DNA from: Candidatus Woesearchaeota archaeon
GTDB lineage: Archaea; Nanobdellota; Nanobdellia; Woesearchaeales; JAGWAF01
Length of the DNA stretch: 36,228 bases
NCBI GenBank assembly: GCA_016211165.1
Contig: JACQSU010000003.1
Coordinates: 1-36,228, forward strand
Direction of reading: 5' to 3'
Made by a program: the position numbers and the translations under genes. Under the pieces are notes generated by a model. It saw only the letters and a list, made by a program, of their open reading frames with translations, was not told where the DNA came from and did no database searches. Below, one piece after another: positions 9,402 to 29,140 of this stretch. Numbering within the stretch: position 1 is the stretch's first letter; each line of letters opens with the position of its first letter.

Positions 9402-11045
9402 ATGCCACAACAAGTACAGCCCATCTTCATTTTGCCAGAAGGCACCACCAAGACTAGTGGTCGTACTGCGCAGAAGCTCAATATCGAGGCGGCCAAACTC
9501 GTCGCTGACCAGGTCCGCACTACATTAGGTCCAAAGGGCATGGACAAGATGATTGTTGACTCCTTGGGCGACATCACCATTACAAATGACGGTGTCACGA
9601 TTCTTCAAGAGATGAATATCGAGCATCCTACTGCGAAGATGATTGTGGAGATCGCAAAAACCCAGGAGGCTGAAGTCGGAGACGGTACAACGACAGCGGT
9701 TATTCTTGCTGGCGAGCTTCTCAAGAATGCCGAAGGCCTCTTAGAGCAAAACGTTCACCCGACCATCGTGGCTAAGGGTTTTATCCTTGCCGAAGCGAAA
9801 TCGCAAGAAGTCCTCAACAAGATCGCGGAAGACTGCTCGATTAAGGACAAAGCGCTTCTCAAAAACATCGCAATAACTGCGATGACAGGAAAGTCTGCCG
9901 AGTCTCATAAGGATTATCTTGCGGATCTTATCGTGACCGCTGTGACAAGTGTCGCTGAAGAGCACAACAGCAAGCTCTCTGTTGACCTCACGAACATCAA
10001 GCTTGAAAAGAAAGTCGGTGGCGGCATTCACGATACAGAACTTGTGCAGGGTATCGTGCTTGATAAGGAGCGCGTGCATCCAGGTATGCCAACGCAAGTC
10101 AAGAATGCCAAGATCGCGATATTGGATTGTGCGATTGAGGTCAAGGACACCGAGACTGACGCAAAGATTCAGATTACTGACCCAAGGCAGATTCAGGCGT
10201 TCATTGATCAAGAGGAAAAGATGATTATGGATAAGGTCAATAAGATTCTCGCGTCAGGTGCGAATGTGGTCTTTTGTCAAAAGGGTATTGATGATACAGC
10301 GCAGTATTTTCTTGCAAAGAATGGAGTCTATGCAGCCCGCAGGGTCGCAAAGTCAGATCTTGAGAAGCTTGGCAAGGCTACAGGCGCCAATATTGTCACA
10401 AGTCTAAAAGAGCTCGCGGCAAAGGATCTTGGAAACGCAGGTTTTGTTGAGGAGATCAAGTTTGGCGATGAGCAGATGACTGCTGTTCGGGATTGCAAGA
10501 ATCCAAAGGCAGTGACGGTCCTTGTTCGGGGCGGCACCGAGCATGTTGTTGCGGAGATTAAGCGCACGCTCACCGATGGCATTGGTGATGTCCGATCAGC
10601 ATTGATGTCCGGTAAGGTGGTTGCTGGCGCTGGTTCTGTTGAGATCGAGCTTGCAAAGCACCTTCGCAAATACGCAGATTCGCTTGAGGGAAAAGAACAG
10701 CTTGCTGTGATAGCATTTGCCAATGCAGTCGAAGTCGTGCCGCGCACGCTTGCCGAATCTGCTGGTCTTGACCCGATTGACAAGCTTGCCGAGCTCAAGT
10801 CTGCTCATGACAAGGGCCAAAGATGGGCTGGCATCGATGTGTTCACTGGCAAGGTTCGCGATGCGTGGAAGGCTAATGTGATTGAGCCGCTTAAGATTAA
10901 GACGCAGGCAATCAAGTCCGCTTCTGAAGTCGCGACGATGATCCTGCGCATTGACGATGTCTTTGCTGGCGGCAGGAACTCTGGCGCTGGTATGCCTGCT
11001 CCCCGTGGGGGAATGGGCGGTATGCCAGGCATGGACATGATGTGA
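9402..11045 (+). CDS. ths: thermosome subunit (group II chaperonin)
   Basis: 547 aa. [37 protein letters not shown] and VAGAGSVE motifs, plus a C-terminal [12 protein letters not shown] tail. Confidence 0.97.
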
Positions 11046-14329: not shown

Positions 14330-14462
14330 TGTGACTGTAAAAGTGGGGCGCAGCCCCTCTTTTCATATAATGCCAAGGATACGTCATGGTCTTGCGCCCG
14401 GCGCAAGACCTGACGAGGAGCACGGCGGAAGGGGTTCAAAATGGGGCCGTGCCCCCTTTTTT
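14330..14462 (+). ncRNA. candidate small structured RNA (speculative)
   Basis: A promoter-like TCAACTGCCTATAATT (14303-14318) is followed by three strong hairpins: GGGGCGCAGCCCC, GGTCTTGCGC-CCG-GCGCAAGACC at 14388-14410, and GGGGCCGTGCCCCC plus T6. No ORF with a start codon or SD. The hairpins may instead simply be terminators for the convergent gltX. Confidence 0.2.
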
Positions 14463-16156
14463 CATTTGTGCGTGTACACAAATATGTACACATTCCCTTG
14501 TTTTCCTTCAAATCGTGCGAAGTAGTGTCTCTCAAATTGCACGATCTGTCCTGGCTTGATACTGGCAAGATGTCGTTCGCCCTTTCCTTTTTGCACGGTT
14601 CCATCATTCATCAGGACTTCGACATCAAGGTTCTCCGGTGATGCAGGCAGCCAGTGCATGATGCGGCCACCGAGTTTGCGGTATGTTGCCACATCAGAGC
14701 TGTGGAATCGATAGGCGTGTGCCTCACTGGTGAAATTGAGTCCTTCCATGAGTCGATAGACTTGTCCGGTAGGGAGGGCGGCAAGATCCTCTGCTTGCAA
14801 CAAGAACGTGCCTTCGGCGGATAATTTCCTTCCGCCTTTGCGATGTTCAGGGTGCAAGTCGAATTCAGCATACACCGCAGGCGCGTCAAGGACCGTGACT
14901 TCTTTGGGGTCAATGACAAGGAAGTATCGATTGGCATCTGCTTCGATGAGTTGCCGATTGTGGTATTCAAGCGATTTGAAAAATTCCTTCACGTCCACGT
15001 GTTTGTCAGTCAAAGAGATCCCCATTCCTATGACGAATCGTCGAAACGCTTCTGCCTGGAATCCGCGTCTGCGAAGTGCCCCTATCGTGGGCAGGCGGAC
15101 ATCGTTCCATCCGTCGTATGTCCCTGCCGTGATTGCGGCCTTGGTTTCCGTGGTCGAGAGGCGTAGTCCATCGAATTGGATGCGTCCATAGTGGATATAT
15201 TCAGGAGTTTTCCATCCGAGGTAGTCAAAGATGTACTTCTGTCGTCTGGTGTTGTCAAAATGATCCTTGCCGCGCAAGACATGGGTTAGGCCCATCGAGT
15301 AGTCATCGGCAGCGACCGAGAAGTTCATCAGTGGCCAGACGCGGTATTTGTTCCCCTGCCGCGGGTGTTCAGTCTCGTTGATGCGCAGGATGGCGAAGTC
15401 CCGCATTGCAGGGTTCTTGTGCGCGACATCGGTTTTAAGGCGTACAACTGCTGCTCCTTCAGGGTATTCTCCTGTGTGCATCTTATGCCAATCTTCGATA
15501 TTGGACTTCGCAGACTTGTCGCGGCACGGGCAGGGTGATCCTTCTTCAATGAGGTTCTTCCACGCCTCACCTTCGCATGTGCAGACGTAGGCGTGATGCT
15601 CTTCAAGCAGTGCAAGGGCGGTTTGATAGTAGAGTTCCATCCGTTCTGATTGTATGAACACTTCGTTAAGATTATTCTGCGAGAGCCATCGCGTGTCGTC
15701 CTCGATCATCTTGTATGCTTCGGGCATGACATTGTCCTGGTTGGTGTCTTCAAGGCGCAGGATGAATGCTCCGCCGTACATCTTGACATATTCAGCGTTG
15801 GGGATGATGGTGAATGCGTGGCCGATGTGAAGTGGTCCGGAGGGTGATGGCGCCGCGCGCATCCGGACCGGCCCGCTCACATTCGGTAGCGGCTTGAGCA
15901 CGTCTTTTTTTGCGCCTTCTTTTTTCTCGAGAAGATCAGGCGCTTCAGAAGCAAGAATGCGCACGCATTCATCTGCTCCGAGTGTGTTGATCTCTATGAC
16001 AACAGGCGCAATCTTCACCATCAGTTCTTTTGCTTTGGGTTTGAGTTCAGGGTTCTCGCCAAGGATTCTCGAAAGGACGGAGTCTGCTTGGGCTACGCCA
16101 TTGTGGAGTGCCGCGTTTTGGAGTGTGAAGAGTCGGATGAGTTTGGCAAGGGTCAT
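14462..16156 (-). CDS. gltX: glutamyl-tRNA synthetase, archaeal type
   Basis: PSGPLHIGHA (HIGH motif) and a class I catalytic core. The N-terminal helical domain LIRLFTLQNAALHNGVAQADSVLSRILGENPELKPKAKEL is typical of archaeal GluRS. The likely start is MTLAKL at 16156; the track ORF extends to 16189. Confidence 0.92.
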   Translation of the reverse strand: MTLAKLIRLFTLQNAALHNGVAQADSVLSRILGENPELKPKAKELMVKIAPVVIEINTLGADECVRILASEAPDLLEKKEGAKKDVLKPLPNVSGPVRMRAAPSPSGPLHIGHAFTIIPNAEYVKMYGGAFILRLEDTNQDNVMPEAYKMIEDDTRWLSQNNLNEVFIQSERMELYYQTALALLEEHHAYVCTCEGEAWKNLIEEGSPCPCRDKSAKSNIEDWHKMHTGEYPEGAAVVRLKTDVAHKNPAMRDFAILRINETEHPRQGNKYRVWPLMNFSVAADDYSMGLTHVLRGKDHFDNTRRQKYIFDYLGWKTPEYIHYGRIQFDGLRLSTTETKAAITAGTYDGWNDVRLPTIGALRRRGFQAEAFRRFVIGMGISLTDKHVDVKEFFKSLEYHNRQLIEADANRYFLVIDPKEVTVLDAPAVYAEFDLHPEHRKGGRKLSAEGTFLLQAEDLAALPTGQVYRLMEGLNFTSEAHAYRFHSSDVATYRKLGGRIMHWLPASPENLDVEVLMNDGTVQKGKGERHLASIKPGQIVQFERHYFARFEGKQGNVYIFVYTHK

Positions 16157-16204
16157 AGTCTCACGCAGAAGGGAGCTTGTTATATACATTGTGGTGGAGT
16201 GATA

Positions 16205-16957
16205 TTAGAATCGTCCGATCGTGGCCAGGCGATAAGAATTCAAGTGCTGTTTGGCTTTACGGATATGTTTGTTAGATCCCTGCCTGCGTGCTGCGTACTG
16301 ATCTGCTGTTCGTTCCTCACGATCAAGTTCTCGTTCAAGTCCGAACCAGGCGACAGGTGAAATGAGCGCGGCGTGTCGTGAGAGTGCAAGCATGCTCGAT
16401 TTTTGTGCGATATGACCAATCTCATGAAGAAGCACGGCTTCGGTTTCCTTTTTGGACAAAAGATCCATCAGTCCTACCGATACGAAGATGCGTGGTGTGC
16501 CAAGTGAGAAGCTAAACGCGATGGGTTTGGCAGTGTCAATCACGTGTAGGGCAGGTGAAGTGATCCGAGCGTCCAGTGCAGCAGAGGCGACAAATCGTGC
16601 GAGCGATCCGTTCTCAAGGCGTCGTGAGCGTTGTGCCATCCTTCGCACAAAGACAAATGGCGCGCATAGCAAGCTTACCAGGATGCTGATTCCTGAAGTG
16701 ATGATCGCAAGCCATATAGTGTGTCGTGCAGTCTCACACGAATCCAACATCGCGGCGCATCCGCCGTATGTTCCATACAACACCACGGGAAAGAGCAGAA
16801 AGAAGACGTGCAAGTACAGAGCTCCGAGTTTTGTCTTGGTGGCCTTGCTTCCAAAGAATGCCGCAAGGGCAAGCAATGCAAACACAAGCGATCCGATGGA
16901 GAGCCATAATTTGAGTGGATCTGTGACAAAGCTTTGCACGCATTCCCCGCACATCAT
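16205..16957 (-). CDS. BlaR1/MecR1-like M56-family membrane metalloprotease (sensor-transducer) without an extracellular sensor domain
   Basis: 250 aa with 4 predicted TM segments and an HEXXH site, AVLLHEIGHIAQ. N-terminal MMCGEC (CxxC) and GGCAAMLDSC. ATGA overlap with the blaI-like gene. Confidence 0.75.
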   Translation of the reverse strand: MMCGECVQSFVTDPLKLWLSIGSLVFALLALAAFFGSKATKTKLGALYLHVFFLLFPVVLYGTYGGCAAMLDSCETARHTIWLAIITSGISILVSLLCAPFVFVRRMAQRSRRLENGSLARFVASAALDARITSPALHVIDTAKPIAFSFSLGTPRIFVSVGLMDLLSKKETEAVLLHEIGHIAQKSSMLALSRHAALISPVAWFGLERELDREERTADQYAARRQGSNKHIRKAKQHLNSYRLATIGRF

Positions 16958-17313
16958 TTGCGAAACCTCTCGTGGAAGTAACTTACGGCTGTGGATCCAA
17001 ATCGATTAATGAGGCCATTCACGACGTCCTCGACAACAGACTTCTCAAATTCCTTCCGGTTCTTGGTTGGGAAGTAGATATAGCGCACGCCTCCGCGTGC
17101 AGTCTCCATGTTCCGCTCGACGAGTCCTTTGAGAAAGAGACGGTCCAAGATGACAGCGACGGAGCTGACTGCGACGTTGCGTTTTCCTTTGAGTTTTGCG
17201 TGTATCTCTCGGACGCGCAGCGACTTGTCCGGCCATAGTATCGAGATGACATCGTTCTCCAGTGGTGAGAGGATATCGCTATTGGATTTCACCGCACGCA
17301 CTGCGTCTTTCAT
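16954..17313 (-). CDS. BlaI/MecI/CopY-family winged-helix repressor
   Basis: 119 aa. LSPLENDVISILWPDKSLRVREIHAKL...VAVSSVAVILDRLFLKGLVER is typical of Penicillinase_R. There is no C-terminal CxC metal motif, so it is BlaI-like rather than CopY-like. AGGAGGG Shine-Dalgarno. Confidence 0.8.
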   Translation of the reverse strand: MKDAVRAVKSNSDILSPLENDVISILWPDKSLRVREIHAKLKGKRNVAVSSVAVILDRLFLKGLVERNMETARGGVRYIYFPTKNRKEFEKSVVEDVVNGLINRFGSTAVSYFHERFRK

Positions 17314-17365: not shown

Positions 17366-18094
17366 TTATCGGTGTTCAAGATATTCTTTGTCAAGCAATC
17401 CTCTGCGAACCCAGTCCTGCATCACAGAGTCATCTAGCGCAGGTTCAGGAGTCACGATCGCAGGATATTTACCACGCTCGATTGTCGACAGATTCCGCGC
17501 CAGGACATCAAGTGTTGTTGCTTTGAATTGGTCTTCCGGAGTCATCACAAGTCCATACCGTTCAAGAAAGCCATCGATTGTGTGGAGATGCTGCTCTTTT
17601 TTGTCAGGCTCGATCGTGATGTGGTAGACTTCAAGGATGTATCCGAATGATGCGGCGCCGCCCCACATATGCTGTATGCTGCTAATCAATTCTGTGCCAA
17701 TGTGTTTTGCATGGTGCTTGGTGACGCGCTTTGCCCACCAGGGATCGGGGTGGATGCCAAGGTCTTCGATGGCGCAGGCAATGTATTGTGCATAGTGAGC
17801 ATCGATCACTCGCGGATCCCTCACGCGCATATTGGCGAAGATGTCGCCGTGCTCGCGTTTGTTGCTTAGCATCTCGTATGTATCCCACGTGTTGGGCTCG
17901 GGTCCCATCCAGCGGATTCGTAGGTCGCCATTGTTTTTGGCAAGTGATCCGAATCGATGCGTGAGGATATAGTAAGTGTCGATGCGCCGCCACTGCTGGT
18001 CCAATGCTGTAAGGAGGCGTTGGTACTGTGCAAGATTGAGACGCGCGCGGCGTTGGACTTGGTATTTCTTGTCCCTCATAGTTGTGTTTGTCAT
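17366..18094 (-). CDS. hypothetical protein, weakly CYTH-like
   Basis: The likely start is MTNTTM at 18094, with a CCTATATTC TATA-like box about 22 nt upstream. Patterns DTYY, LRIRW, AKRVTKHH and GYILEVY loosely follow CYTH strand motifs, but the ExExK position reads QVQRR. Confidence 0.55.
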   Translation of the reverse strand: MTNTTMRDKKYQVQRRARLNLAQYQRLLTALDQQWRRIDTYYILTHRFGSLAKNNGDLRIRWMGPEPNTWDTYEMLSNKREHGDIFANMRVRDPRVIDAHYAQYIACAIEDLGIHPDPWWAKRVTKHHAKHIGTELISSIQHMWGGAASFGYILEVYHITIEPDKKEQHLHTIDGFLERYGLVMTPEDQFKATTLDVLARNLSTIERGKYPAIVTPEPALDDSVMQDWVRRGLLDKEYLEHR

Positions 18095-18152
18095 AGTTTT
18101 GGGGAGACGAATATAGGCTCTTAATGGTTTCCATAACATTCTTAAAGATTAG

Positions 18153-18187: not shown

Positions 18188-19180
18188 ATGAATATGGATC
18201 TGAATAAGCTCATGCTTGTCTTGCTTGTGATTCTGGCTGTTGTAGTGGCATCCTCCCCAGTCCTTGCCTTGGAGCTTCCCACGTCGCTTCAGAACCTGCA
18301 GTCGCAAAATGAGCAGAACACCCAGCGATTTGTGGCAACCATTACGTTTTTTGTCGCATTTCTTGCTGGCATTATCAGCTTTGTGAGTCCGTGCATTCTC
18401 CCGGTCTTTCCTGCGTTCTTTGCGTATGCGTTTACAAAAAAGCGTGACTTGAAGAAAGCCACTCTTGCCTTCTCTGCCGGGATGATTGTGGTAATGGTCG
18501 CAATCGGTTTGCTTGCAGCATATGTTGGCCGTCTTCTCTTAGACGAGTACCGCGCGACTATTGTCTTTTATCTCGGATTCCTCTTTATTGGTCTTGGCAT
18601 GGTCATCGCCTTGGGCCGGACATTTGGTGTTGCATCACAAAGGAAAATCAAGATAGACTCATTATGGTCCATCGCAGGGTTTGGCGCGCTCTTTGGCATC
18701 GGCTTCACGCCGTGTATTGGCCCGATTTTTGGCGGCATTCTTGCGATTGCGATGGTGCTTGGTGACTATTTATGGTCCGGTCTCTTGTTCGCATTCTATG
18801 CGATAGGCATCTCATTTCCACTCTATTTCCTCTCTGTATATTATGACAAATGGGAGTTGCACAAAAGGCCCTGGATGCGCGGCAAGACTTTCACGATCAA
18901 TCTTGGCAAGAAACGCATTGAGACACATTCCCACAATCTGCTCTCGGGAGGCATCCTCATCTTCTTTGGATCCCTCTTCGTCTTGCACAATGGCACATTT
19001 CTCTTTAATGCGCTCAGTGGTGGATACTTGAGTCACTTGTGGTTTATGTATAATGACGCGCTTCTGCAAGGCAGTCCTGCGTGGTATTGGGCATCGCTTG
19101 TGGTCTTTGTTCTCGCCATACTCTTTGTGGCAAAATCGTTGAAGTCGTCCGGAGGGCGGCATTATAGCAAATCTCGTTGA
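18188..19180 (+). CDS. ccdA: CcdA/DsbD-family thiol:disulfide electron transporter
   Basis: 330 aa, polytopic. Both conserved Cys motifs are present: FVSPCILPVFPAF and FTPCIGPIFGGIL. Confidence 0.88.
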   Translation: MNMDLNKLMLVLLVILAVVVASSPVLALELPTSLQNLQSQNEQNTQRFVATITFFVAFLAGIISFVSPCILPVFPAFFAYAFTKKRDLKKATLAFSAGMIVVMVAIGLLAAYVGRLLLDEYRATIVFYLGFLFIGLGMVIALGRTFGVASQRKIKIDSLWSIAGFGALFGIGFTPCIGPIFGGILAIAMVLGDYLWSGLLFAFYAIGISFPLYFLSVYYDKWELHKRPWMRGKTFTINLGKKRIETHSHNLLSGGILIFFGSLFVLHNGTFLFNALSGGYLSHLWFMYNDALLQGSPAWYWASLVVFVLAILFVAKSLKSSGGRHYSKSR

Positions 19181-19372: not shown

Positions 19373-20104
19373 ATGGCAAAAAAGGAATCATCGGTTGAGT
19401 ACACATTCAATATTCCAACACTCGTCCTCATTGCGTTGTTTGCAGGAATCATCATATTCAACCAATACCAGATTATGACATTTGGTATAAGCGGCCCGGG
19501 CACATTCTCATTGTCAGGGCGAACAAACCTTGCGCTTCCACCCGGAAGCCAGGGGACGACACTGGGCCCGGTCTTTAATTCGGATGGCCGTACAACAAGT
19601 GTCAAGGAGCTCCCAACAATTTCTGCGACTCCTGATCCTGCTCCGAGCGGCGACCCTGTGCAAGACGCGATCAACAGATACGTCCCAACAGGAACACCAG
19701 AATACGGCGCTGCCTTGGGTGTCTCATTTGATGATCCAATCAATTCACTTAACAAGCTCGCGCGTTACGACCAGACTGAACAACTTGATACGCCAGAAGA
19801 GAAAGCTCGCTATGACAAGCTCGCGTATGGGTTTAGCTGTGACTTCTGTTGTGGAGGTCCGAATTCAGTGACGCACATCTCAAACTGTGGTTGCTCGCAC
19901 GCAGCTGCGTGGCGCGGTGTCTTCAAGTACTTTATCAAGAACAATCCAGAGTACACCGATGAACAGCTGATAGGCGAGGCGACTCGGTGGAAGACGCTTT
20001 GGTATCCAGGTCCTATGATGAAGCGGATCCTCTCTGAAGGATCAAGCGGGTCAGTGGACGCATCGACACTATCACAGCTCCCCGGCATGGTCGGCGGCTG
20101 CTAA
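19373..20104 (+). CDS. membrane-anchored extracytoplasmic Cys-cluster protein ending in LPGMVGGC
   Basis: 243 aa. N-terminal TM IPTLVLIALFAGIIIF. Cys cluster CDFCCGGPNSVTHISNCGCSH. The final residues are LPGMVGGC-stop. GAGGGGTGA Shine-Dalgarno. Confidence 0.7.
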   Translation: MAKKESSVEYTFNIPTLVLIALFAGIIIFNQYQIMTFGISGPGTFSLSGRTNLALPPGSQGTTLGPVFNSDGRTTSVKELPTISATPDPAPSGDPVQDAINRYVPTGTPEYGAALGVSFDDPINSLNKLARYDQTEQLDTPEEKARYDKLAYGFSCDFCCGGPNSVTHISNCGCSHAAAWRGVFKYFIKNNPEYTDEQLIGEATRWKTLWYPGPMMKRILSEGSSGSVDASTLSQLPGMVGGC

Positions 20105-20126
20105 GAGGGACGAAGTCCCTCTTTTT
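20103..20126. terminator. 9-bp hairpin plus T-run between the two MVGGC genes
   Basis: AAGAGGGAC-GAA-GTCCCTCTT followed by TTT. It overlaps the stop codon of the upstream gene. Confidence 0.4.
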
Positions 20127-20139
20127 GGAGGAATCAAAA

Positions 20140-20361
20140 ATGGAAAAGAACACGATTGTCGCGGTCGTTCTGGGCGTGCTTGTCCTAGTTTCATTAGTGC
20201 AAGCATTCCAGCTCTACGGCCTTAAGAATTCAGTGTCCGGCGGGGCGACGGTTCGCCAAGTGTCAGCTGCGGCTCCACTAGCAAGCGCTCCTGCATCGTC
20301 AGGTGCGCCTGCGCTTCCTGCGAGTCTGAACAACTTGCCAGAGATGGTCGGCGGCTGTTAG
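20140..20361 (+). CDS. small membrane-anchored protein ending in LPEMVGGC
   Basis: 73 aa from ATG 20140, with GGAGG 9 nt upstream. TM IVAVVLGVLVLVSLV, an Ala/Ser/Pro linker, then LPEMVGGC-stop. Confidence 0.65.
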   Translation: MEKNTIVAVVLGVLVLVSLVQAFQLYGLKNSVSGGATVRQVSAAAPLASAPASSGAPALPASLNNLPEMVGGC

Positions 20362-20424: not shown

Positions 20425-21546
20425 ATGAAGTCCAATGTCGATCACCGATTGATGATTAACACGCTCTTGCTTGTGCTCACGTTCTTTGTGCTCCTCAATT
20501 TGTTCCTGACCTATGATCTTCGTCAGGAAGTCGCCGAGCGCGTCCGCTTGGATGCGCTTTCCCGTGTTCCTCCGATGATGGAGCTTGTTGTGATCTCTGA
20601 TGATTCCTGTGTCGATTGCTTTAATATCTCTCCTGTGGTTTCCCAGATAAAGGCGATGAATGTAAATCTCACCAAGGAGTCTGTGCTTCAATATGGTTCC
20701 GATGAAGCGAGGGCGCAAATCGAGAAGTATAGTGTACAAAGTATTCCTTCAGTCATCCTTCTGGGCGCTCCGGAGACATTTTCATTAAGCGGATTCAAGC
20801 GCACGAAAGATGCTCTAATCCTAAGCGAAGTGCGTCCAATCTACATCGACGCGACGACAGGTCAAGCAAAAGGGCGCCTTGAGATGACGCTCATTAACGA
20901 TCCATCCTGCAAGGGTTGTTTTAACATCGGCATCGTTGCAGGTCAGATCAAGCGGTTGACCTCGGTGCGCCAAGAGATTACGCTCTCATCTGCGAGTGCG
21001 CAAGCAAAGAAGCTCATCGCCAAGTACAATATCACGAAGTTGCCGGCGCTTATCTTAAGCGAAGACACGTCGGTGTATGCTGCCATTGCAAGTGAGTGGG
21101 CCAATGTGGGCACGGTTGAATCCGATGGGATGTATGTCCTGCGCGAACTTCCGCCGCCCTATGTTGATGTCGCAACAGGTCAAGTCGTGGGGCGTGTGAG
21201 TGTAACATATCTCACAGATGTGTCGTGCAAGGCGTGTTATGATGTTTCCATTCACAAGGCTGTGCTTGCGCAATTGGGCATTGCTCCTGCCATCGAGTCA
21301 AGGATGGATGTTGCAAGTGCGCAAGGTAAGATGCTGGTCGCGAAGTATGGAATCGAGTCTGTTCCAACAGTGATCCTTAGTAGGGACGCTAAGGCCTTTG
21401 ACGTTATGAGCTCTGTGTGGGAGCAAGTGGGTACCATCGAGTCCGATGGCAGCTATGTATTCCGCAATCTAGGCGCCATCGGTGGCGTGACGTATCACAA
21501 TCTGTCCAGTGGCGCTGTACAAAACGCGACCCTGCCGCAGCAGTGA
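20425..21546 (+). CDS. membrane-anchored protein with three tandem thioredoxin-fold CxxC repeats
   Basis: N-terminal TM, then three units of about 110 aa, each with D-x-S-C-x-x-C (CVDC, CKGC, CKAC) and a (K/E)KY(S/N/G)(V/I)xx(I/L/V)P(S/A/T)(V/L)IL cis-Pro-like block. Confidence 0.8.
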   Translation: MKSNVDHRLMINTLLLVLTFFVLLNLFLTYDLRQEVAERVRLDALSRVPPMMELVVISDDSCVDCFNISPVVSQIKAMNVNLTKESVLQYGSDEARAQIEKYSVQSIPSVILLGAPETFSLSGFKRTKDALILSEVRPIYIDATTGQAKGRLEMTLINDPSCKGCFNIGIVAGQIKRLTSVRQEITLSSASAQAKKLIAKYNITKLPALILSEDTSVYAAIASEWANVGTVESDGMYVLRELPPPYVDVATGQVVGRVSVTYLTDVSCKACYDVSIHKAVLAQLGIAPAIESRMDVASAQGKMLVAKYGIESVPTVILSRDAKAFDVMSSVWEQVGTIESDGSYVFRNLGAIGGVTYHNLSSGAVQNATLPQQ

Positions 21547-21580
21547 AGTAGAGGGATTGGCCCTCCTGGTGGTGACGAAT

Positions 21581-21610
21581 GGGGGTTCAAAAGGGGGTTT
21601 CCCCCTTTTC
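21581..21610. repeat. G4-hairpin element (family copy)
   Basis: GGGGGTTCAAAAGGGGGTTTCCCCCTTTTC, between two same-strand genes of the operon. Confidence 0.75.
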
Positions 21611-21617
21611 AAGAGTG

Positions 21618-22001
21618 ATGGTGGCGATCCTTGTATGGGTCGCTGTGCTTGCCAGTCTGTATGCCGTCATCGGCATTGATGATACGGATCGGCAGAACTG
21701 CCCGTACAAATCTGGTGGCAATCCCAATGCGTCACTGCGCATTGCCTACTTTGGGAATCCATTCTGCATTTGGTGTCTCATTCTTGAGCCCAAGCTTGAG
21801 CGTCTTGTTGAGCAAAAGGGGCGGTCGTTTTATATCCAGTATTTTGATGATAGGTATTGTGTGAATGAGGCAGAGGCCTTTGGCGTGCAGGCAGTGCCGT
21901 TTTTTGTGTTTAACAAGAGTGGTGTGATCACGCCGCATGCAGGGTATATTGAAGAGAGTGATATGCGCAGTATTATTTGTCAAGAGACAGGTGATTGTTA
22001 A
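21618..22001 (+). CDS. membrane-anchored thioredoxin-like protein (CIWC)
   Basis: Start taken at MVAILVWVAVLASLYAV, because the track start at 21579 would put the hairpin repeat inside the coding region. FGNPFCIWC...VQAVPFFVF Trx fold. Ends ...QETGDC-stop. TAATG overlap with the next gene. Confidence 0.7.
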   Translation: MVAILVWVAVLASLYAVIGIDDTDRQNCPYKSGGNPNASLRIAYFGNPFCIWCLILEPKLERLVEQKGRSFYIQYFDDRYCVNEAEAFGVQAVPFFVFNKSGVITPHAGYIEESDMRSIICQETGDC

Positions 22002-22648
22002 TGACAGGCAAGACTACGGATATCATGATGATGGCCGTCCTCGTGGTGCTCGTGGTTATGCTGTCCGCAGGCGCGGTCTTTATTGATGATCTGATTCCCT
22101 CACCATCCTTGCCAAAGGCAAGCGCCAAAGTTGATCCGTCGCTGGCACGGGTTTCGTTCGGGTCCAATCCTAATGCCTCCGTGCATATGCTCGTCTTTGG
22201 TGATTATGAATGTGCAAATACAAAGGTAGATTGGGAGATGATCAAGCGTATTCGATCTGATTATGGTAAAAAGATCAATCTTGTGTGGGTGCACACGCCG
22301 CTGGATGTTCATCCTCATTCTCAAGCAGCGGCGCGTGCCGTTGTCTGTGCGCAGGCGCAAGGCAAGTTCTGGGAGTTTAGTGATGTGCTCTTTGCGAATC
22401 AGGATCGTCTTGATGATGGCGCGCTTTTAGAGTATGCGGCAAGGATCGGTCTTGATCAGACAGTGTTCCGCTCCTGCTTCTACTCTTCACGTGCAGAGAA
22501 CAAGGTGCGTGATGATCTTGTCTTTGCTCTTGGTCATGGCATCCGCGGCACGCCGACGTACGTGATTAGTGGCCGATGGTTTGAGGGTGTGCAGGATGAG
22601 GGGTTCTTGCGAGGGGTCTTGGATTCTGCTGTGGAGGCAGGACAATGA
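22001..22648 (+). CDS. DsbA/BdbD-like thioredoxin-fold protein with the active site changed to C-A-N-T
   Basis: VFGDYECANTKV occupies the position where the family has DxxCPxC. HPHSQAAARAVVCAQAQGKFWEF and GIRGTPTYVISG match the DsbA-like family. N-terminal TM anchor. Confidence 0.8.
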   Translation: MTGKTTDIMMMAVLVVLVVMLSAGAVFIDDLIPSPSLPKASAKVDPSLARVSFGSNPNASVHMLVFGDYECANTKVDWEMIKRIRSDYGKKINLVWVHTPLDVHPHSQAAARAVVCAQAQGKFWEFSDVLFANQDRLDDGALLEYAARIGLDQTVFRSCFYSSRAENKVRDDLVFALGHGIRGTPTYVISGRWFEGVQDEGFLRGVLDSAVEAGQ

Positions 22649-23409
22649 ATCTCGCGCAAGTCGCTTTGAGGGGTGCGCGGTTGAGTGATCCGTTTTCTTT
22701 GTGGAGGCCGATTGTGGGTGATGTGGGTTTTTTGTTTGCGCTTGGTTTTGTTGGCGGTGCGATTGGTAAGAAGATAGAGGCAGTGCTAATCGCAGCAGGG
22801 GCGTCCATTGCAAGGCAGAGTCAGGGTACGGATGCGGTGGTGCTTACAGCGATGGATAAGTCACTTCTATGGCAGGCATTGGGTTTGCATCTGGTGCTAG
22901 TGCTTGTGATCTATGTTCTGTTTTGCGCGTTTGCAAGTATTGGCTGGTGGTGGGCGGTGAATAGAAAGGGTGTCATCACTATGTCGCTTTATGTGCGCAG
23001 GTTCTTTGGAGTGCATGCCCTATTGATTCCTCTGGGGGTTATCGTCGATGCATTGGGATTTTGGGCAGAGCATCAGAGGCTTGCAGAGCCAGCATCGATG
23101 ATGACGACTCTTTTTATAGGCGGCTATAGTGCCGGTTTGCTTATGCTGGGGATTGTTTCGGTAATCGCTTCTGTGAGGATCTTGCGCAGTGCTGCGTGGA
23201 TAGCGTGGAAGGAGGCTGTTGTCTTGCTCTGTTCTCCACGCAAGTCGCTTGTTCCAGTGGGGCTTATTGTGTTGGGATTCGGGATCATCAATGCAGGTAT
23301 ATGGCTGGCTTCTGCCCTTGATCCTCGCTTTGGCATTGTGGTTGGTATTGGTGTTTTATTTCCTTATCTTGCATTCACTCGACTCTTTCTCGTGGAGGTG
23401 TTTGGATGA
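22645..23409 (+). CDS. polytopic membrane protein, unknown family
   Basis: 254 aa with about 6 hydrophobic segments. ATGA overlaps at both ends. I recognise no motif. Confidence 0.6.
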   Translation: MNLAQVALRGARLSDPFSLWRPIVGDVGFLFALGFVGGAIGKKIEAVLIAAGASIARQSQGTDAVVLTAMDKSLLWQALGLHLVLVLVIYVLFCAFASIGWWWAVNRKGVITMSLYVRRFFGVHALLIPLGVIVDALGFWAEHQRLAEPASMMTTLFIGGYSAGLLMLGIVSVIASVRILRSAAWIAWKEAVVLLCSPRKSLVPVGLIVLGFGIINAGIWLASALDPRFGIVVGIGVLFPYLAFTRLFLVEVFG

Positions 23410-24104
23410 ATCCTGGCAAACTCATGGTCGGCGTCCTCATTCATGCAATTCTTATTGTCATTCTTGCGCTTATCGGGTCGGCGTCAGTCACTGCGTGGCA
23501 GTCGTTCTTTGGTGGCGTTCTGCCCCAGGATCTGGTCAGTAGGCTGTGGATGATCGTGTTTGTCACCGTGGTGTTCTTTGTGCCGCAGTGGTTTGCGTTT
23601 TCAACAGTATCCTATGTCGCGATTTCCTACCTGTCCTATGGCGTGTGGTGGCGTCGCGGCTCGTACGTTCGTTTCCTAAAGACGCACGCGTGGTTTCTTC
23701 TCTTGTTGATGGGATCCTTCATCCTGTGGGATGTGCTTGGTGGGTATGTGCGTGAGTCCTCGGTAATCATCTGGGGCTTTGTTGGAATCGCGGCCTTGGG
23801 TGTGATCTATCTGTATCTGCATCATCGTCGATTGCGTCATTTCGTTGATGTCGCGCACAAGGAATGTGTCTGTATTCGGAAGGCGGTTCCCTGGATCGCC
23901 CTGCACTGGACTGGTGGAATCGTTGCACTTTCGCTCATTGCATTTGTCCTTCCGATAAAGGAATCCTGGCTTGAGATGTTGGTTGTGAGCGGTGTGTTTG
24001 GCGCTGTGTTGACTTTGGATACAGAGCGCTTTCGGGTTGTGATGCAGACGCATGATATGAAAGGGTCGGAGCGCGTTTCGCACACGGCGAGGGGCAGAAG
24101 ATAA
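23406..24104 (+). CDS. polytopic membrane protein, unknown family (CVC motif)
   Basis: 232 aa with about 6 hydrophobic segments. Loop HKECVCIRK. ATGA overlap with the upstream gene. copA starts 30 nt downstream. Confidence 0.6.
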   Translation: MNPGKLMVGVLIHAILIVILALIGSASVTAWQSFFGGVLPQDLVSRLWMIVFVTVVFFVPQWFAFSTVSYVAISYLSYGVWWRRGSYVRFLKTHAWFLLLLMGSFILWDVLGGYVRESSVIIWGFVGIAALGVIYLYLHHRRLRHFVDVAHKECVCIRKAVPWIALHWTGGIVALSLIAFVLPIKESWLEMLVVSGVFGAVLTLDTERFRVVMQTHDMKGSERVSHTARGRR

Positions 24105-24133: not shown

Positions 24134-26317
24134 ATGATGAAGAAAACGTCGATTAAGATTACAGGTATGCATTGTGCAAGTTGCGCTGGTAAAATCGAGA
24201 AGGCGCTCAAGGCAAAGCCCGGAGTTGTCGTGGCATCGGTGAATTTCGGCACCGAGACTGCGCAAGTCGAGCATGATGTGATTAAGAGTAGTGTGCAGGA
24301 TCTCATTGAGGCGATCAAGGCGCAGGGATATGGTGCTTTTGGACAGGGTGAGCCTGGTCATGCAGAGTCTATGAATCATGAAACGCATGATGGGCAGGAT
24401 CTAAAAATCAAGCTTCTTGTCTCGATCCTTCTGACATTGCCCATTGTCTTGTGGACGATGACGCCTGTGGTGTATCCTCTCCCATTTGCAAAGGAGTGGG
24501 TGTTGTTAGTCCTCGCGACTCCTGTGGTCTTGTGGGGTGGCTCCTTTCTCTTTGTGAACACTGTAAAGGCGATTCGTCGGATGTCTGCTGATATGGACAC
24601 GCTTATCGCGATCGGTGTCGGCGCCGCCTACCTATATAGTGTTGCGACAACAGTGGGTCTTGTTGCAGGTCCCCAGTTCTTTGAGACTGCGTCGGCTTTG
24701 GTGTGTTTTATCATTTTGGGCAGGGTTCTTGAGGCGCGGGCGCGTGGAAAGACTAAGCAGTCATTGCAAAAGCTTGTTGAGCTTGCGCCAAAGGAGGCGA
24801 CGGTGTTCCGGGATGGTAGACAAATCAAGATTCCGGTTAAGGACATCATTGTAGGTGATTTGGTGATTGTCAAGCCTGGTGAGAAGATTCCCGTGGATGG
24901 TATCGTTTCAAAAGGTCATTCATCTGTGGATGAGTCGATGATTTCTGGTGAGAGCATTCCAATTGAGAAAAAGCCAGGGGATGCTGTGATTGGTTCGACC
25001 ATCAACAAGTCAGGATCCTTTGCATTCACTGCGCAGAAGGTGGGTAAGGATACCGTGCTTGCGCAGATAATCAGGATGGTTGAGGAGGCCATGTCAAGTA
25101 AGCCGTCAGTCCAGCGACTTGCTGACAAGGTCTCATCGATCTTTGTCCCAGTAGTCTTAGTCCTTGCCATTCTCACATTCCTGTTTTGGTATTACATAGC
25201 TGCGATGGGTTTTGTCTTTGCGCTCACGCTTGCGATCACGACGCTTGTCATTGCGTGTCCATGCGCATTAGGGCTTGCGACGCCGACTGCTGTGATGGTA
25301 GGTACTGGTGTTGGCGCCGAGCATGGTATTTTGATCAAGTCAGGTGATGCGCTTGAGAATGTGGGCAAGCTCACGACGATTGTGCTTGATAAGACAGGCA
25401 CGCTTACTCTTGGCAAGCCGGAAGTGACGGATGTAATCGAGCTCGCATCAAAGCGTGAGGACATTCTTAAGTTTGCGGCGATTGGTGAGGTTAAGTCAGA
25501 GCATCCTTTGGCTGATGCGATTGTGCAGGCGGCAAAGTTGGATAATATTGTGATTCCTGAAGCGACCTTTTTCCGCAATCACGAAGGCCTTGGGATCGAG
25601 GCGTCCTGGCGTGGCAAGCATGTGCTTGTTGGCAATCTCCGTTTGATGAAACAGCATCGTATTCCCACTGACGATTCCTTGGAGCGTCTTGAAGCTCTTG
25701 AGTCCGAGGGCAAGACCGTGATGTGTGTTGCGATTGAGAATAAGCTTGCTGGTCTCGTCGCTGTGGCTGATGTGCTCAAGGCTGATGCAAAGGCCGCTGT
25801 TGATGGGCTTACGTCCTTGGGTCTTGGAGTGATGATGCTTACTGGTGATAATGAGCGTGTCGCGAATGGCATTGCGAAAAAGGCAGGCATTGATTCCGTG
25901 ATCGCGCAGGTGCTTCCAAAAGACAAGCTTGAGAAGATCAGGGAGTTGCAAGCGCAGGGCAAGCGTGTGGCAATGGTTGGTGATGGGGTCAATGATGCTC
26001 CAGCTCTGACGCAGGCTGATGTGGGAATTGCCATTGGCGGGGGGACGGATATCGCAAGGGAATCAGGGGACATTGTGCTTATCAAGAGTAATGTGAATGA
26101 TGTCGTGATGGCAATCAAGCTCTCGCGGCTGACCTTGCGCAAGATTTATCAGAATCTGTATTGGGCCTTTGGGTATAATGTGATTGGCATTCCTGTGGCA
26201 ATGGGTGTGCTGTACCCTGTGGGTATCCTGCTTCCTGCCGAGGCCGCTGGTCTTGCGATGGCTCTCTCGAGCGTCAGCGTTGTGACGAATAGTTTACGTA
26301 TTAGGAAGTTTGCCTGA
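24134..26317 (+). CDS. copA: copper-translocating P1B-type ATPase
   Basis: 727 aa. N-terminal HMA domain GMHCASC, TM6 CPC ([11 protein letters not shown]), DKTGTLT, MLTGDN and [10 protein letters not shown]. Confidence 0.95.
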
Positions 26318-27833: not shown

Positions 27834-28676
27834 ATGCGCATAAGATGGTTGCTGATGGTTGTTCTTGCCGTGGGCTGTGTGTCTGCATATCCTGCCCCTG
27901 TGGGTTACGTCAATGACTTCGCCGATGTCTTGGATTCTGCCATGCGTGTTGAGCTCGAATCCAGGCTGGTAAGAATAGAGCAGAACTCATCTGCCCAAAT
28001 CGCTGTCGTTACGATCCCTTCCCTCGACGGCGAAGATATCGATTCGTATGCTGTGAAACTCTTCGAAGTGTGGAAGATCGGCAGGGTCGGCGTGGATAAT
28101 GGTCTTCTTATCCTCGTTGCTCCGCATGAGAAGAAGTGGCGCATTGAGGTGGGGTATGGTCTCGAGGGGATTGTCACGGATTCTATCTCTAGTCGAGTAG
28201 GCCGGGCAATGGTTCCCTATTTCAAGGAAGGAAACTTCAGCGCAGGAATTGTTGCTGGTCTTAATCTTCTTGAGCCCCTGCTTCGCGGTGACGAGGTTCC
28301 CTTTGCCCAAGATGTCCCTTCGGCGCTTGGCGAGGCCTGGGTGATTCGCAATGCATTTGCGATCCTTGCCATCCACTGGTTTGTGTGTGCGATCTGCTTT
28401 TCGTGGTACCAATCCCTTGGCAAGAAGAAACGAAAGCAGGTGCTCATCGCCCTTCCGTGGGCACTCGTAGTCTTTATTGCCTTTCTCTCTCTTGTTTTTG
28501 GGGTCGTGCTTGCGGTCTTCACTCTGATCTGGTTCGTGTCGTCTTTTGGCAATCGTGGGCGTGGTGCAGGAGGATGGTATGGTGGTGGCGTTGGAGGGAT
28601 GGGTGGCTCATCCGGCGGGTTTGGAGGGTTTGGGGGTGGTGGTTCCGGTGGTGGTGGATCGAGCGGGGGATGGTGA
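27834..28676 (+). CDS. TPM-domain (TLP18.3/Psb32/MOLO-1, YgcG-like) protein with TM and a Gly-rich tail
   Basis: GYVNDFADVLD...QIAVVTIPSL...VDNGLLILVA...RIEVGYGLEG, then TM segments, then the ...GGGGSGGGGSSGGW tail typical of the family. Confidence 0.85.
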   Translation: MRIRWLLMVVLAVGCVSAYPAPVGYVNDFADVLDSAMRVELESRLVRIEQNSSAQIAVVTIPSLDGEDIDSYAVKLFEVWKIGRVGVDNGLLILVAPHEKKWRIEVGYGLEGIVTDSISSRVGRAMVPYFKEGNFSAGIVAGLNLLEPLLRGDEVPFAQDVPSALGEAWVIRNAFAILAIHWFVCAICFSWYQSLGKKKRKQVLIALPWALVVFIAFLSLVFGVVLAVFTLIWFVSSFGNRGRGAGGWYGGGVGGMGGSSGGFGGFGGGGSGGGGSSGGW

Positions 28677-28899
28677 CGCTTATGTCGACGATAATGCTTC
28701 GTTCTCGGACAAAGTCCAATGCCTTACGGATATGTTCGGAAGAGATGCTTCGTTTGAGTAACTTGCGTCGTACTTCAAAAAGCGTGATCGCGGAGCAGGA
28801 AACGCGTGTGTCTGATTCAATGAGGGTCGTACAGATTGGTTCGCTATCAAAAAAGTAACCTAGCCACACCGACGTGTCGAGGAATTTAGAATCGATCAT
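28519..28899 (-). CDS. vapC: PIN-domain (VapC-like) toxin, probably degenerate at its 3' half
   Basis: The N-terminal MIDSKFLDTSVWLGYF...AITLFEVRRKL is PIN-like. After about residue 74 the ORF runs antisense through the Gly-rich tail of the TPM gene (His/Arg/Thr-rich) and lacks the distal TxDxDF block. Confidence 0.5.
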   Translation of the reverse strand: MIDSKFLDTSVWLGYFFDSEPICTTLIESDTRVSCSAITLFEVRRKLLKRSISSEHIRKALDFVRERSIIVDISVTIPRSIHHHRNHHPQTLQTRRMSHPSLQRHHHTILLHHAHDCQKTTRTRSE

Positions 28900-29113
28900 G
28901 CTTGTCTCGCAGGTCCTTGAGTATCGCGTTCATGGGGATCTTTGTCTTGAGAAATCCCTTCAGGCTCAGGGGTCTGGTGTGGGCTATCATGCGTCTGATT
29001 GTCTCATCGTAGCTTGCCAAGTGGTATTGTTGGCGCAGCCGTTTGAGTGTGGTCGCAGTCTCAGCGCTGACTTGGATGGCGGTCATCATAAGGGCTATTT
29101 CGCCGAAACTCAT
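28886..29113 (-). CDS. vapB: antitoxin (VapB-like, RHH-type) partner of the PIN ORF
   Basis: 75 aa. AIQVSAETATTLKRLRQQYHLASYDETIRRMI. It overlaps the PIN ORF start by 14 nt. Confidence 0.5.
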   Translation of the reverse strand: MSFGEIALMMTAIQVSAETATTLKRLRQQYHLASYDETIRRMIAHTRPLSLKGFLKTKIPMNAILKDLRDKHDRF

Positions 29114-29140
29114 TTAAACAGGAGTCGCTCTTCAACTGCC

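Follow-up and report, generated by a model that had tools for sequence, protein, structure and literature searches.

The window analysed here is the whole of a 36,228-nucleotide stretch of contig JACQSU010000003.1 (assembly GCA_016211165.1, Candidatus Woesearchaeota archaeon; positions 1 to 36,228, forward strand). Within it lie two adjacent genes, which we call BIG and small, whose membrane-anchored products both end in the octapeptide L-P-x-M-V-G-G-C directly followed by a stop codon. This common tail, pointed out in an earlier note on the same DNA, can be read directly from both open reading frames (ORFs). The two genes and their features are as follows, in window coordinates.

19373..20104, + strand: BIG, a 243-residue type II membrane protein with an N-terminal transmembrane helix, a flexible linker, an ectodomain and the C-terminal LPGMVGGC
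19412..19489, + strand: signal-anchor transmembrane helix of BIG (residues 14-39 in the AlphaFold model), ending FNQYQI (N-Q-x-Q)
19838..19900, + strand: Cys5-His cluster of BIG, C156-x2-C159-C160-G ... C172-G-C174-x-H176
20078..20101, + strand: tail 1, L-P-G-M-V-G-G-C in BIG, then the stop TAA at 20102-20104
20104..20126, + strand: hairpin with a perfect 8-bp stem (AGAGGGAC-GAA-GTCCCTCT) running into a T-run; the gap from the BIG stop to the small start is 35 nt
20140..20361, + strand: small, a 73-residue protein with a transmembrane anchor (VLGVLVLVSLVQAFQL), a linker of ~38 residues rich in Ser, Ala and Gly, and the C-terminal LPEMVGGC, whose Cys is its sole Cys
20335..20358, + strand: tail 2, L-P-E-M-V-G-G-C in small, then the stop TAG at 20359-20361

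BIG ends ...STLSQLPGMVGGC-TAA and small ends ...SLNNLPEMVGGC-TAG. The stop codon adjoins the terminal Cys in both genes, so neither a transmembrane segment nor a basic tail follows the motif, and the window contains the 14-mer ATGGTCGGCGGCTG at 20087-20100, at 20344-20357 and nowhere else (0 expected from 100 shuffles of the window); on both points the earlier description was accurate. Translation of small almost certainly starts at the ATG at 20140 (MEKNT...), not at the TTG at 20125 given in the mechanical ORF list, because GGAGG stands 8 nt before the ATG and the N-termini of homologues agree with it. Each protein has one N-terminal hydrophobic helix, and family-wide a single transmembrane segment is predicted in 62/75 BIG and 90/91 small proteins. 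Lys plus Arg number 2.6 before and 0.7 after the helix in BIG, and 2.2 and 1.6 in small, where the bias is weaker; this charge bias supports a topology with the N-terminus inside and the C-terminus outside. The two proteins are otherwise as different in sequence as had been stated, being unrelated except for the tail and a Gln motif at the end of the transmembrane helix. Outside that helix end, their similarity is limited to the tail (13 residues by BLASTP); the helix ends are alike in an NQxQ/QxxQ motif (hhalign probability 94.8%, to be read with the caution that transmembrane matches call for). In the alignment of 120 BIG sequences the N and both Q hardly vary, and the helix of small ends in an invariant Q-A-F-Q-L-type motif, followed by a Ser/Ala/Gly-rich linker of 25-50 residues. 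As far as sequence can tell, small looks in effect like BIG minus its ectodomain.

The tail is strongly conserved in both families. We detected 239 homologues of BIG; among the 120 listed, on which the tail and alignment counts for BIG rest, 107 end in MVGGC and 2 in MQGGC. A word-indexed search with small returned 8 homologues, all with the LPxMVGGC ending, and when 1.84 billion representatives were searched exhaustively with a profile, 676 matched at E<=1e-3 and 219 at E<=1e-10, counted at 50% identity. The endings of 157 small proteins are MVGGC in 149, QVGGC in 4, MQGGC in 1 and MVEGC in 1. In tailed small proteins G-G-C is conserved in 100%, L at position -8 in 99% and P at -7 in 96%, while position -5 is Met in 97% and Gln in 3%; the tail Cys is the only Cys in 154/157. 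The conserved stretch extends upstream of the octapeptide, as P-S-(S/N)-(L/I)-Q-(N/D)-L-P-x-M-V-G-G-C in small and as a matching hydrophobic-x-(N/D)-L-P-x-M-V-G-G-C in BIG. Seven of the eight tail residues are invariant in archaea and bacteria, so the loss of the tail among orthologues, which the earlier note had named as the observation that would count against its proposal, is not what these families display. Among 175 tail-bearing ORFs, nearly all are BIG or small, or small-like variants.

Selection on the tail acts at the level of the peptide and not of the DNA. Of 62 genomes that have BIG as well as small, only 8 show agreement of the two tails at every one of the four synonymous sites of V-G-G-C; on average 2.1 of 4 sites agree when both tails come from one genome and 1.4 of 4 when they come from different genomes, and the within-genome match fits shared codon usage. 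Because synonymous tail sites vary freely among genomes, the 14-nt identity in the window is incidental, and gene conversion or a DNA-level element behind it is ruled out, as the synonymous sites differ in most genomes.

A DNA-pattern scan for L-P-x-M-V-G-G-C-stop in one genome per species, covering 185,579 species, gave at least 120 loci. Among the 120 matches listed, 110 are real loci and 10 arose by chance and belong to no plausible gene; these lie in Clostridia, Paenibacillus, Planctomycetes, Verrucomicrobia and others. A chance origin of the tail is rejected, as all 10 chance matches lie outside plausible genes, DPANN archaea and the Candidate Phyla Radiation (CPR). The real loci are labelled as DPANN archaea or as unclassified archaeal metagenome-assembled genomes (MAGs), apart from about 12 in CPR/Patescibacteria (Paceibacterota, Magasanikbacteria, Uhrbacteria). 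Some of these CPR loci lie on contigs of 183-434 kb, which speaks against mis-binning. The named BIG homologues, among those listed, belong to Woesearchaeota, Aenigmarchaeota and Micrarchaeota. Several MAGs with the two genes and their neighbours (L041, L004, L009, L015 and others) carry the labels "Methanosarcinales" or "Candidatus Binatia"; their labels or binning are probably wrong, because the gene content of these loci matches that of DPANN contigs.

The earlier statement that no characterised family bears this tail held up. Pfam and NCBIfam gave no match to either tailed protein apart from a spurious YidC match to the transmembrane helix, and literature searches on the motif, and on DPANN or Patescibacteria together with CcdA, thioredoxin, copper or disulfide, found nothing relevant. 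A type IV pilin-like signal was considered and set aside, there being no class III cleavage motif at the N-terminus. Some small proteins have N-terminal cytoplasmic extensions that look metal-binding: five HKPHE repeats (L119:3916-4249), HHKHKAHEHRH (L068:2890-3190, - strand), HHDHCANCNEH (L086:7030-7345, CPR) and ECCKNK (L045:4743-5064 and L058).

The larger partner has an ectodomain of ~130 residues behind a variable linker. Its cluster, CxxCCG...CGCxH, is invariant in one alignment and invariant or nearly so in the 120-sequence alignment, and G161, G173 and a dozen other residues are also invariant. The invariant Cys of the core are odd in number (5), together with one His, and the tail adds a sixth thiol. 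The N-terminal region is Lys-rich, and the cytoplasmic N-termini contain 8.4% His against a background of 1.9%, with at least three His before the transmembrane helix in 19/76 proteins. AlphaFold gave a mostly helical model of the window protein with a predicted local distance difference test score (pLDDT) of 85.6 and a predicted template-modelling score (pTM) of 0.74, and a pLDDT of 80.4 for a 367-residue member of another subfamily. In these models the tail scores higher than the linker (80 vs 71 in the window protein, 76 vs 59-66 in the 367-residue member). A short helix is predicted just upstream of the tail. Foldseek searches of the PDB with the two models found no relative (best E 1.5 and 4.0, template-modelling scores below 0.2), a sequence-profile search of the PDB with BIG returned nothing, and none of the 120 homologues listed has a Pfam annotation. 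Judged by these PDB sequence and fold searches, the ectodomain may represent a previously unseen fold with a Cys5-His site.

Two named possibilities for the cluster were considered and rejected. The DxCCGG hallmark of the ScdA_N family (DUF542, PF04405) recalls part of it, and 8/36 BIG members match ScdA_N in Pfam at E<=1, all sub-threshold (best E 0.13); PDB sequence and fold searches gave no YtfE/ScdA match, and the likeness is at the level of the motif only. A heme-attachment site does not fit either, CGCxH being CxCxH and not CxxCH, and no cytochrome maturation genes are linked.

The BIG superfamily also includes more distant forms. Long variants of 400-450 residues (L114:131-1496, L083:17-1316, L007:2187-3456 on the - strand) have no tail of their own, and carry an extra N-terminal multi-transmembrane domain with an in-helix G-x-x-A-x-x-C-P-x-C and a C-x-x-C past the last helix. 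In CPR this domain is encoded as a separate gene of ~165 residues, with a stand-alone copy at L006:1507-1993 (- strand). The domain has no significant Pfam match, and we take it to be reminiscent of MerT/MerF-type metal-passing helices. CPR BIG proteins have a Gly-rich C-terminal arm, ...HGGAGxDGxHG, with other metal-ligand residues. A distant paralogue of the BIG core (L019:5310-5874; hhalign probability 94%, E 1e-7) is ~190 residues long with an N-terminal anchor, has PCCCxCWRW in place of CxxCCG...CGCxH and ends in a conserved ...DGCGG(E)GHxxGxH arm. This paralogue family counts 2267 homologues, mostly DPANN and unannotated, and is sometimes encoded beside BIG and small. An attempt to name BIG through it failed, as the 120 listed of these homologues are all unannotated.

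We then consider the neighbouring genes. In the window, those with a recognisable family are the following.

16205..16957, - strand: BlaR1-like M48/M56 membrane metalloprotease (PF01435, E 4.3e-9; PF05569, E 2.3e-5)
16954..17313, - strand: BlaI/CopY-type winged-helix repressor of 119 residues (PF03965 Penicillinase_R, E 1.5e-15)
18188..19180, + strand: CcdA/DsbD-type transmembrane thiol-electron transporter (PF02683 DsbD_TM, E 8.6e-12)
20425..21546, + strand: TRX3, a membrane-anchored protein of 373 residues with three thioredoxin-fold domains, each with a CxxC and a cis-Pro (Pfam/NCBIfam Thioredoxin)
21579..22001, + strand: single thioredoxin-like protein, 140 residues, membrane-anchored, ending ...TGDC (Pfam Thioredoxin, E 2.4e-4, sub-cut-off)
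21995..22648, + strand: DsbA-like thiol-disulfide oxidoreductase (PF01323, E 5.3e-12; PF13462, E 1.6e-10)
24134..26317, + strand: CopA-type Cu(I)-exporting P1B ATPase (E1-E2_ATPase, Hydrolase and HMA domains)

On the + strand the order is thus CcdA, BIG, small, TRX3, the single thioredoxin-like protein, the DsbA-like protein, two polytopic membrane proteins and CopA, with the protease and repressor upstream on the opposite strand. The shares of these and other neighbours were obtained by clustering the ORFs of 109 sampled loci in stretches of 8 kb, the loci having been picked by the presence of the tail.

BIG: 100/109 loci, 92%
small: 92/109 loci, 84%
TRX3 (triple thioredoxin): 89/109 loci, 82%
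CcdA/DsbD_TM: 57/109 loci, 52%
c4 (~190 residues, conserved His cluster, no Pfam family): 42/109 loci, 39%
M48/M56 protease: 24/109 loci, 22%
c6 (small thioredoxin-like protein): 24/109 loci, 22%
BlaI-type repressor: 23/109 loci, 21%
CopA: 11/109 loci, 10%, in both DPANN and CPR

Less common neighbours encode YHS, glutaredoxin, MerT/HMA-like, PadR-TRASH, DUF302 and peroxiredoxin proteins. The genes almost always follow one another as BIG, small, (c6), TRX3: among 55 small genes with at least 1.5 kb on both sides, BIG lies at most two genes upstream in 46 and TRX3 at most three genes downstream in 47, usually directly after small. BIG, small and TRX3 are the conserved three-gene core of an envelope cassette of DPANN and CPR. 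CcdA usually accompanies this core, a BlaI/BlaR1-like regulator pair often does, and copper or mercury-type metal genes sometimes do; the window has the full complement. The association with thiol and copper genes proposed earlier is borne out in these loci, and the thiol link is much stronger than the copper link, because CopA and other metal genes are absent from most stretches and thioredoxin and CcdA genes are near-universal. A control for the bias towards tails came from three tail-less BIG homologues (P0049, P0044 and P0070) fetched by exact protein look-up. In 3/3 of their loci a small gene ending LPxMVGGC lies one or two genes away, BlaI and CcdA are present in 3/3, and the M48 protease and TRX3 in 2/3. 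The 400-450-residue BIG variants likewise have a tailed small gene after them. The cassette therefore appears always to supply at least one tail.

The partner proteins have the residues expected of their families. In 60 homologues of TRX3, C62/C65, C162/C165 and C268/C271 are 100% conserved and P108, P207 and P314 are 98-100% conserved, and C69 and C176 of CcdA are 100% conserved. A two-Cys DsbD_TM protein and a tethered thioredoxin-fold protein with CxxC and cis-Pro, the two components of a CcdA/thioredoxin reducing pathway, are thus encoded together. CopA of the window has an N-terminal MHCASC (MxCxxC) and the membrane CPC that mark a P1B-1 ATPase. The repressor reads as a generic BlaI-type protein paired with the M48/M56 protease, which is presumed to be its signal-transducing partner; its CopY_TcrY score is 34 bits against a cut-off of 122 bits. 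The terminal Cys that the earlier note had seen in the thioredoxin-like ORF two genes downstream of small is present in the window (TGDC), but it is not a conserved feature: the protein has homologues in 3 other sampled loci only, and one of these three has a near-terminal Cys.

The tail does not belong to any of the known systems with which we compared it. Sorting signals resemble it in being short conserved motifs near the C-terminus of different proteins, and the sortase motif also starts with Leu-Pro. They differ in being tripartite, with a motif, a transmembrane helix and a basic tail, and in needing a sortase, none of which is linked at the sampled loci. In the tail, L-P-x is followed by M-V, and the Thr-Gly of LPXTG is never present. 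The stop codon lies directly past the Cys in the window, in 149/157 small and in 107/120 BIG proteins, with no room for a transmembrane helix and charged tail. Archaeosortase and exosortase signals (PGF-CTERM, PEP-CTERM) are excluded likewise, by the lack of residues past the motif and of an NCBIfam match; the earlier judgement that the tail is unlike all three kinds of signal therefore stands. No sortase gene occurs among the annotated recurrent neighbour clusters of the sampled loci, a search that did not extend to whole genomes. CaaX or Rab prenylation does not apply, as the tail has one Cys in the last position, not at -4 or as CC or CXC, and the C-terminus is predicted outside. Ubiquitin-like and ThiS/MoaD Gly-Gly carriers were rejected too: small is a transmembrane helix with a low-complexity linker, and the BIG model is mostly helical without a beta-grasp match. 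Neither protein matches ThiS or MoaD, and no E1 or JAMM gene is found among the recurrent neighbours. An HMA/CopZ metallochaperone was dismissed, there being no HMA match in BIG or small, and HMA occurring only in CopA and some neighbours. For DUF4266 (PF14086), neither tailed protein has a Pfam match, and the tail has one Cys and not CXC. DUF4266 is found in clusters with DsbD, thioredoxin, ApbE and DUF3570, and redox cycling has been proposed for it, the family itself being uncharacterised (Méheust et al., eLife 2021, PMC8238504). Its motif is CXC and not LPxMVGGC, and its system uses flavinylation (ApbE), which is absent here.

Functional parallels exist for parts of the cassette. The ScsABCD system confers copper tolerance in Salmonella and Proteus, and consists of the DsbD-like ScsB, the thioredoxin-fold ScsC and ScsD and the small Cys-motif protein ScsA. 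Like the cassette, it combines an electron importer, tethered thioredoxin-fold proteins and a small Cys-motif membrane protein with a link to copper stress. In contrast, its proteins have no sequence kinship to BIG or small, ScsA has an internal CxxC instead of a single C-terminal Cys, there is neither a triple-thioredoxin protein nor a Cys5-His ectodomain, and the system is proteobacterial. Flexible C-terminal tails are known from MerA (Cys-Cys), mammalian thioredoxin reductase (Gly-Cys-Sec-Gly), domain 3 of CCS (CXC) and Ctr1 (His-Cys-His). As proposed below for the present tail, a flexible C-terminal Cys in these proteins delivers Hg(II), Cu(I) or reducing equivalents to a site that is buried or lies on a partner, and in several of them a Gly next to the Cys gives reach. 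However, those tails sit on cytoplasmic enzymes or on transporters of known fold and have no LPxMV docking part, whereas the arm of the cassette is extracytoplasmic, is found on two gene products and includes a separate arm-only protein. In the CcdA-ResA/StoA and DsbD-DsbG systems, electrons go from CcdA to a tethered thioredoxin-fold protein and on to extracytoplasmic client cysteines, and DsbG specifically guards single cysteines against sulfenylation. Those pathways have apocytochrome c, sporulation proteins or L,D-transpeptidases as clients, whereas in the cassette the apparent clients are two new families defined by the tail, and the redoxin has three active domains. With its backbone of CcdA, thioredoxin folds, CopA and BlaI/BlaR1, the cassette belongs to a familiar type of redox and metal module of the envelope. 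No earlier description covers the two tailed families, the C-terminal motif common to them, the arm-only protein or the Cys5-His fold.

Any account of the tail has to deal with its conservation, the topology bias, the gene linkage and the absence of known relatives, all of which are observed. We tentatively favour a reading in which the tail is a tethered terminal-Cys arm that docks on the Cys5-His centre of BIG, is kept reduced by CcdA and TRX3 and hands on Cu(I) or another thiophilic metal, and we regard this as possible rather than probable; what we infer is that the arm docks, that it binds metal and which way electrons and metal move. The arm would sit on a flexible linker of variable length with its C-terminus outside the membrane. 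Within the conserved 11-12 tail residues, the hydrophobic L, M and V would dock in a groove of a conserved partner, and Gly-Gly, the textbook spacer for bringing an end group into a site, would let the terminal thiol enter a reactive one. The likeliest docking partner would be the Cys5-His cluster of BIG, with the CxxC sites of TRX3 as its likeliest counterpart for recycling. At the outer membrane face the arm would pick up Cu(I) or another thiophilic metal and hand it to the BIG cluster for sequestration or transfer, while CcdA would feed electrons to TRX3, which would keep the tail Cys reduced and resolve mixed disulfides made by copper or oxidants. In this scheme small would be a minimal, probably abundant, arm-only version, which could also serve BIG variants without a tail of their own. 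That seven of the eight tail residues do not vary between archaea and bacteria points to a conserved protein surface that recognises the tail, and not to a metal-binding or reactive atom alone. L, M and V and the upstream helix look like a peptide-in-groove motif, and the higher pLDDT of the tail than of the linker in two subfamilies suggests that the tail docks on the ectodomain.

Several observations favour this tethered-arm reading. Among them are the conservation of the peptide in archaea and bacteria, the tight gene order, the conserved redox sites of TRX3 and CcdA and the constant supply of a tail. The tail is the only reactive feature of small, and Gly-rich arms with metal-ligand residues recur elsewhere in the BIG-core superfamily (HGGAGxDGxHG and DGCGGEGHxxGxH). 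For metal in particular speak CopA in 11/109 loci, the YHS, MerT/HMA-like and PadR-TRASH genes, the Met/His/Cys-rich stretches of c4 and the His-rich N-termini of BIG. By our own estimate CopA would be met by chance at roughly 1-2% in genomes of ~1 Mb, and the observed share is about 10 times that. The metal context is real but partial. Other observations weigh against the reading. Docking has pLDDT as its single line of evidence, and the invariance of L, P, V, G and G exceeds what a simple metal ligand needs, which points to protein recognition first. The Met-to-Gln replacement in ~3% of small proteins keeps the shape and loses the thioether ligand, so the Met is arguably at least in part a packing residue, and one thiol with one thioether makes a weak Cu(I) site by itself. 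CopA and the other metal genes are missing from most sampled stretches, in contrast to thioredoxin and CcdA genes. The repressor has no Cys and hence no CxCx4CxC site, so it is not a CopY-type copper sensor. Finally, the sampled loci were selected by the tail, and the three loci of tail-less BIG are the ones free of this bias. Cu(I) hand-off, a mixed disulfide with the thioredoxin proteins and a C-terminal modification, as suggested in the earlier note, are each plausible from the gene context; direct hand-off from the CopA exit site is weak as a proposal, because CopA is found in 10% and TRX3 in 82% of the 8-kb stretches.

A pure thiol relay without metal would explain much of the same evidence; taken by itself we consider it somewhat unlikely, and nearly as likely as the metal reading. 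Here the tail Cys would be a membrane-anchored substitute for low-molecular-weight thiols. It would enter mixed disulfides with the BIG cluster or oxidised clients in the envelope, and TRX3 would recycle it with electrons from CcdA, a logic like that of glutathione/glutaredoxin, mycothiol/mycoredoxin and the flexible Cys tails of thioredoxin reductase. The strongest linkage is to TRX3 and CcdA, not to metal genes, with TRX3 usually the next gene after small. The single Cys of small, the tolerated Met-to-Gln variants and the strict invariance of the octapeptide, which fits recognition by a dedicated redoxin, agree with such a relay, as do the peroxiredoxin, glutaredoxin and DsbA-like genes nearby. 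CPR and DPANN are known for reduced biosynthesis, given which an encoded thiol buffer would be sensible. However, the relay leaves the enrichment of CopA, YHS, TRASH and MerT/HMA unexplained, as well as the His-rich N-termini and the His/Cys/Gly arms of the paralogues; an oxidant-detoxifying activity is not known for the BIG fold, and one thiol per polypeptide would be a costly buffer. A structural cross-link is a doubtful explanation. It would consist of a stable disulfide between tails, in BIG-small heterodimers or in homodimers, or between a tail and the fifth Cys of BIG, with thioredoxin and CcdA serving only folding or isomerisation. The odd number of invariant Cys in the BIG core, which the tail makes up to six, is in its favour, together with the polar Gln motif at both transmembrane ends, which could pair the helices, and the supply of a tail by small whenever BIG has none. 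Such a cross-link has no need for seven invariant residues or for an arm-only protein in two domains of life, many loci have a tailed BIG without a nearby small or a small without a tailed BIG, and the machinery that dominates the cassette is reducing (CcdA) and not oxidising.

Comparably improbable in our view is that LPxMVGGC is a processing or attachment signal, recognised by a transpeptidase, a protease or a lipid or cofactor transferase, so that the mature tail would be cleaved, anchored or modified. It begins with L-P-x as the sortase motif does and, like sorting signals, forms the very end of proteins that otherwise differ; an M48/M56 metalloprotease gene is often adjacent. That protease, however, pairs with the BlaI repressor, as BlaR1 does. 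Past the motif there is no transmembrane segment or basic tail, and among the recurrent neighbour families there is no sortase, archaeosortase, rhombosortase or transferase. The tail is on two families only, whereas sorting signals usually mark many cargo proteins, and both BIG and small are already anchored at the N-terminus. The same protease and BlaI pair could instead make the tail an extracellular cue, as a released peptide or through its redox or metal state sensed in place, with small as a sensor antenna or a pheromone precursor. The pair lies upstream on the opposite strand in the window and occurs in 21-22% of loci, with BlaI in 3/3 unbiased loci; in the short BlaR1-like protease itself no sensor domain can be recognised, and Gram-positive quorum sensing, where small precursors with an active C-terminal end are known, offers a precedent. 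Nonetheless, pheromones diversify fast and the tail peptide is nearly invariant from archaea to bacteria, the identical tail is also found on the large Cys-cluster protein, and most sampled loci have no BlaI/BlaR pair within reach, so that we give this explanation very little weight.

It is conceivable, if on balance unlikely, that LPxMVGGC-COOH defines a new class of extracytoplasmic tethered-thiol arm, a genetically encoded and membrane-anchored single Cys with an arm-only carrier, a Cys5-His catalytic or metal centre of a new fold as partner, and recycling by a triple thioredoxin. In ultra-small symbiotic archaea and bacteria such an arm would take the place of soluble low-molecular-weight thiols or of periplasmic metallochaperones, and the cassette would have been exchanged between two domains of life. 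DPANN and CPR make up a large share of microbial diversity and live attached to other cells, and to our knowledge almost none of their envelope biochemistry has been characterised. The cassette is one of few multi-gene modules clearly common to both. Two large families (at least 239 BIG homologues and 676 small representatives) and the paralogue family of 2267 members come without a Pfam family, structure or literature in our searches, and an octapeptide with a terminal Cys, carried by an enzyme-like protein as well as by an arm-only partner, offers a simple, testable way into them. The question at stake is whether a tethered thiol serves copper defence or redox buffering at the surface that contacts the host. 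The tail would add an entry to the short list of C-terminal functional motifs, along with a candidate new fold with a Cys5-His site.

Two recurrent neighbours have features of their own. Members of c4 (L113:5802-6384, L123:11217-11963, L125:8895-10109) are membrane-anchored and conserve H70, H72, H108, H116 and C154 over ~190 residues; the C-terminal part is weakly ThiS-like (E 0.0013, sub-cut-off), and the family has no significant Pfam match. Some have inserts rich in Met, His and Cys, for example HGHGSEGMMTHM...DGMCDICGM, or are fused to a multi-transmembrane domain. The c6 protein (L030:1853-2315 and 23 other loci) is a single-domain thioredoxin-like protein often encoded between small and TRX3. 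It has an active-site-like WCxF in which the second Cys is lost and a conserved near-terminal L-(T/S)-G-C-x(1-3), which is not LPxMVGGC. The 140-residue thioredoxin-like protein of the window, with its TGDC, may be a loose relative of the c6 pattern.

The hairpin between BIG and small was read directly from the sequence and is absent from the terminator-scan output. It could determine the proportion of BIG to small product, either as a partial terminator or by stabilising the transcript. It is probably not conserved, because small starts at or within a few bases of the BIG stop in several genomes.

Three further ORFs inside the cassette have no family match, and none of them recurs in the sampled loci: one for a soluble-looking protein of 257 residues between the repressor and CcdA (17366-18139, - strand) and two for the adjacent polytopic membrane proteins between the DsbA-like protein and CopA (22645-23409 and 23406-24104, both + strand). 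In another locus, a reverse-transcriptase gene (RVT_1, 345 residues; L123:5598-6635) lies just upstream of the BlaI/M56 pair of its cassette and may be a retroelement inserted beside it. No tRNA genes were found in the 36-kb window. Elsewhere the window appears to encode ordinary housekeeping functions of archaea: a thermosome subunit, a class I Glu/Gln-tRNA synthetase, a PRPP synthetase and a pair of TPM-domain and LemA proteins (9402-11045, 14462-16189, 27834-29722).

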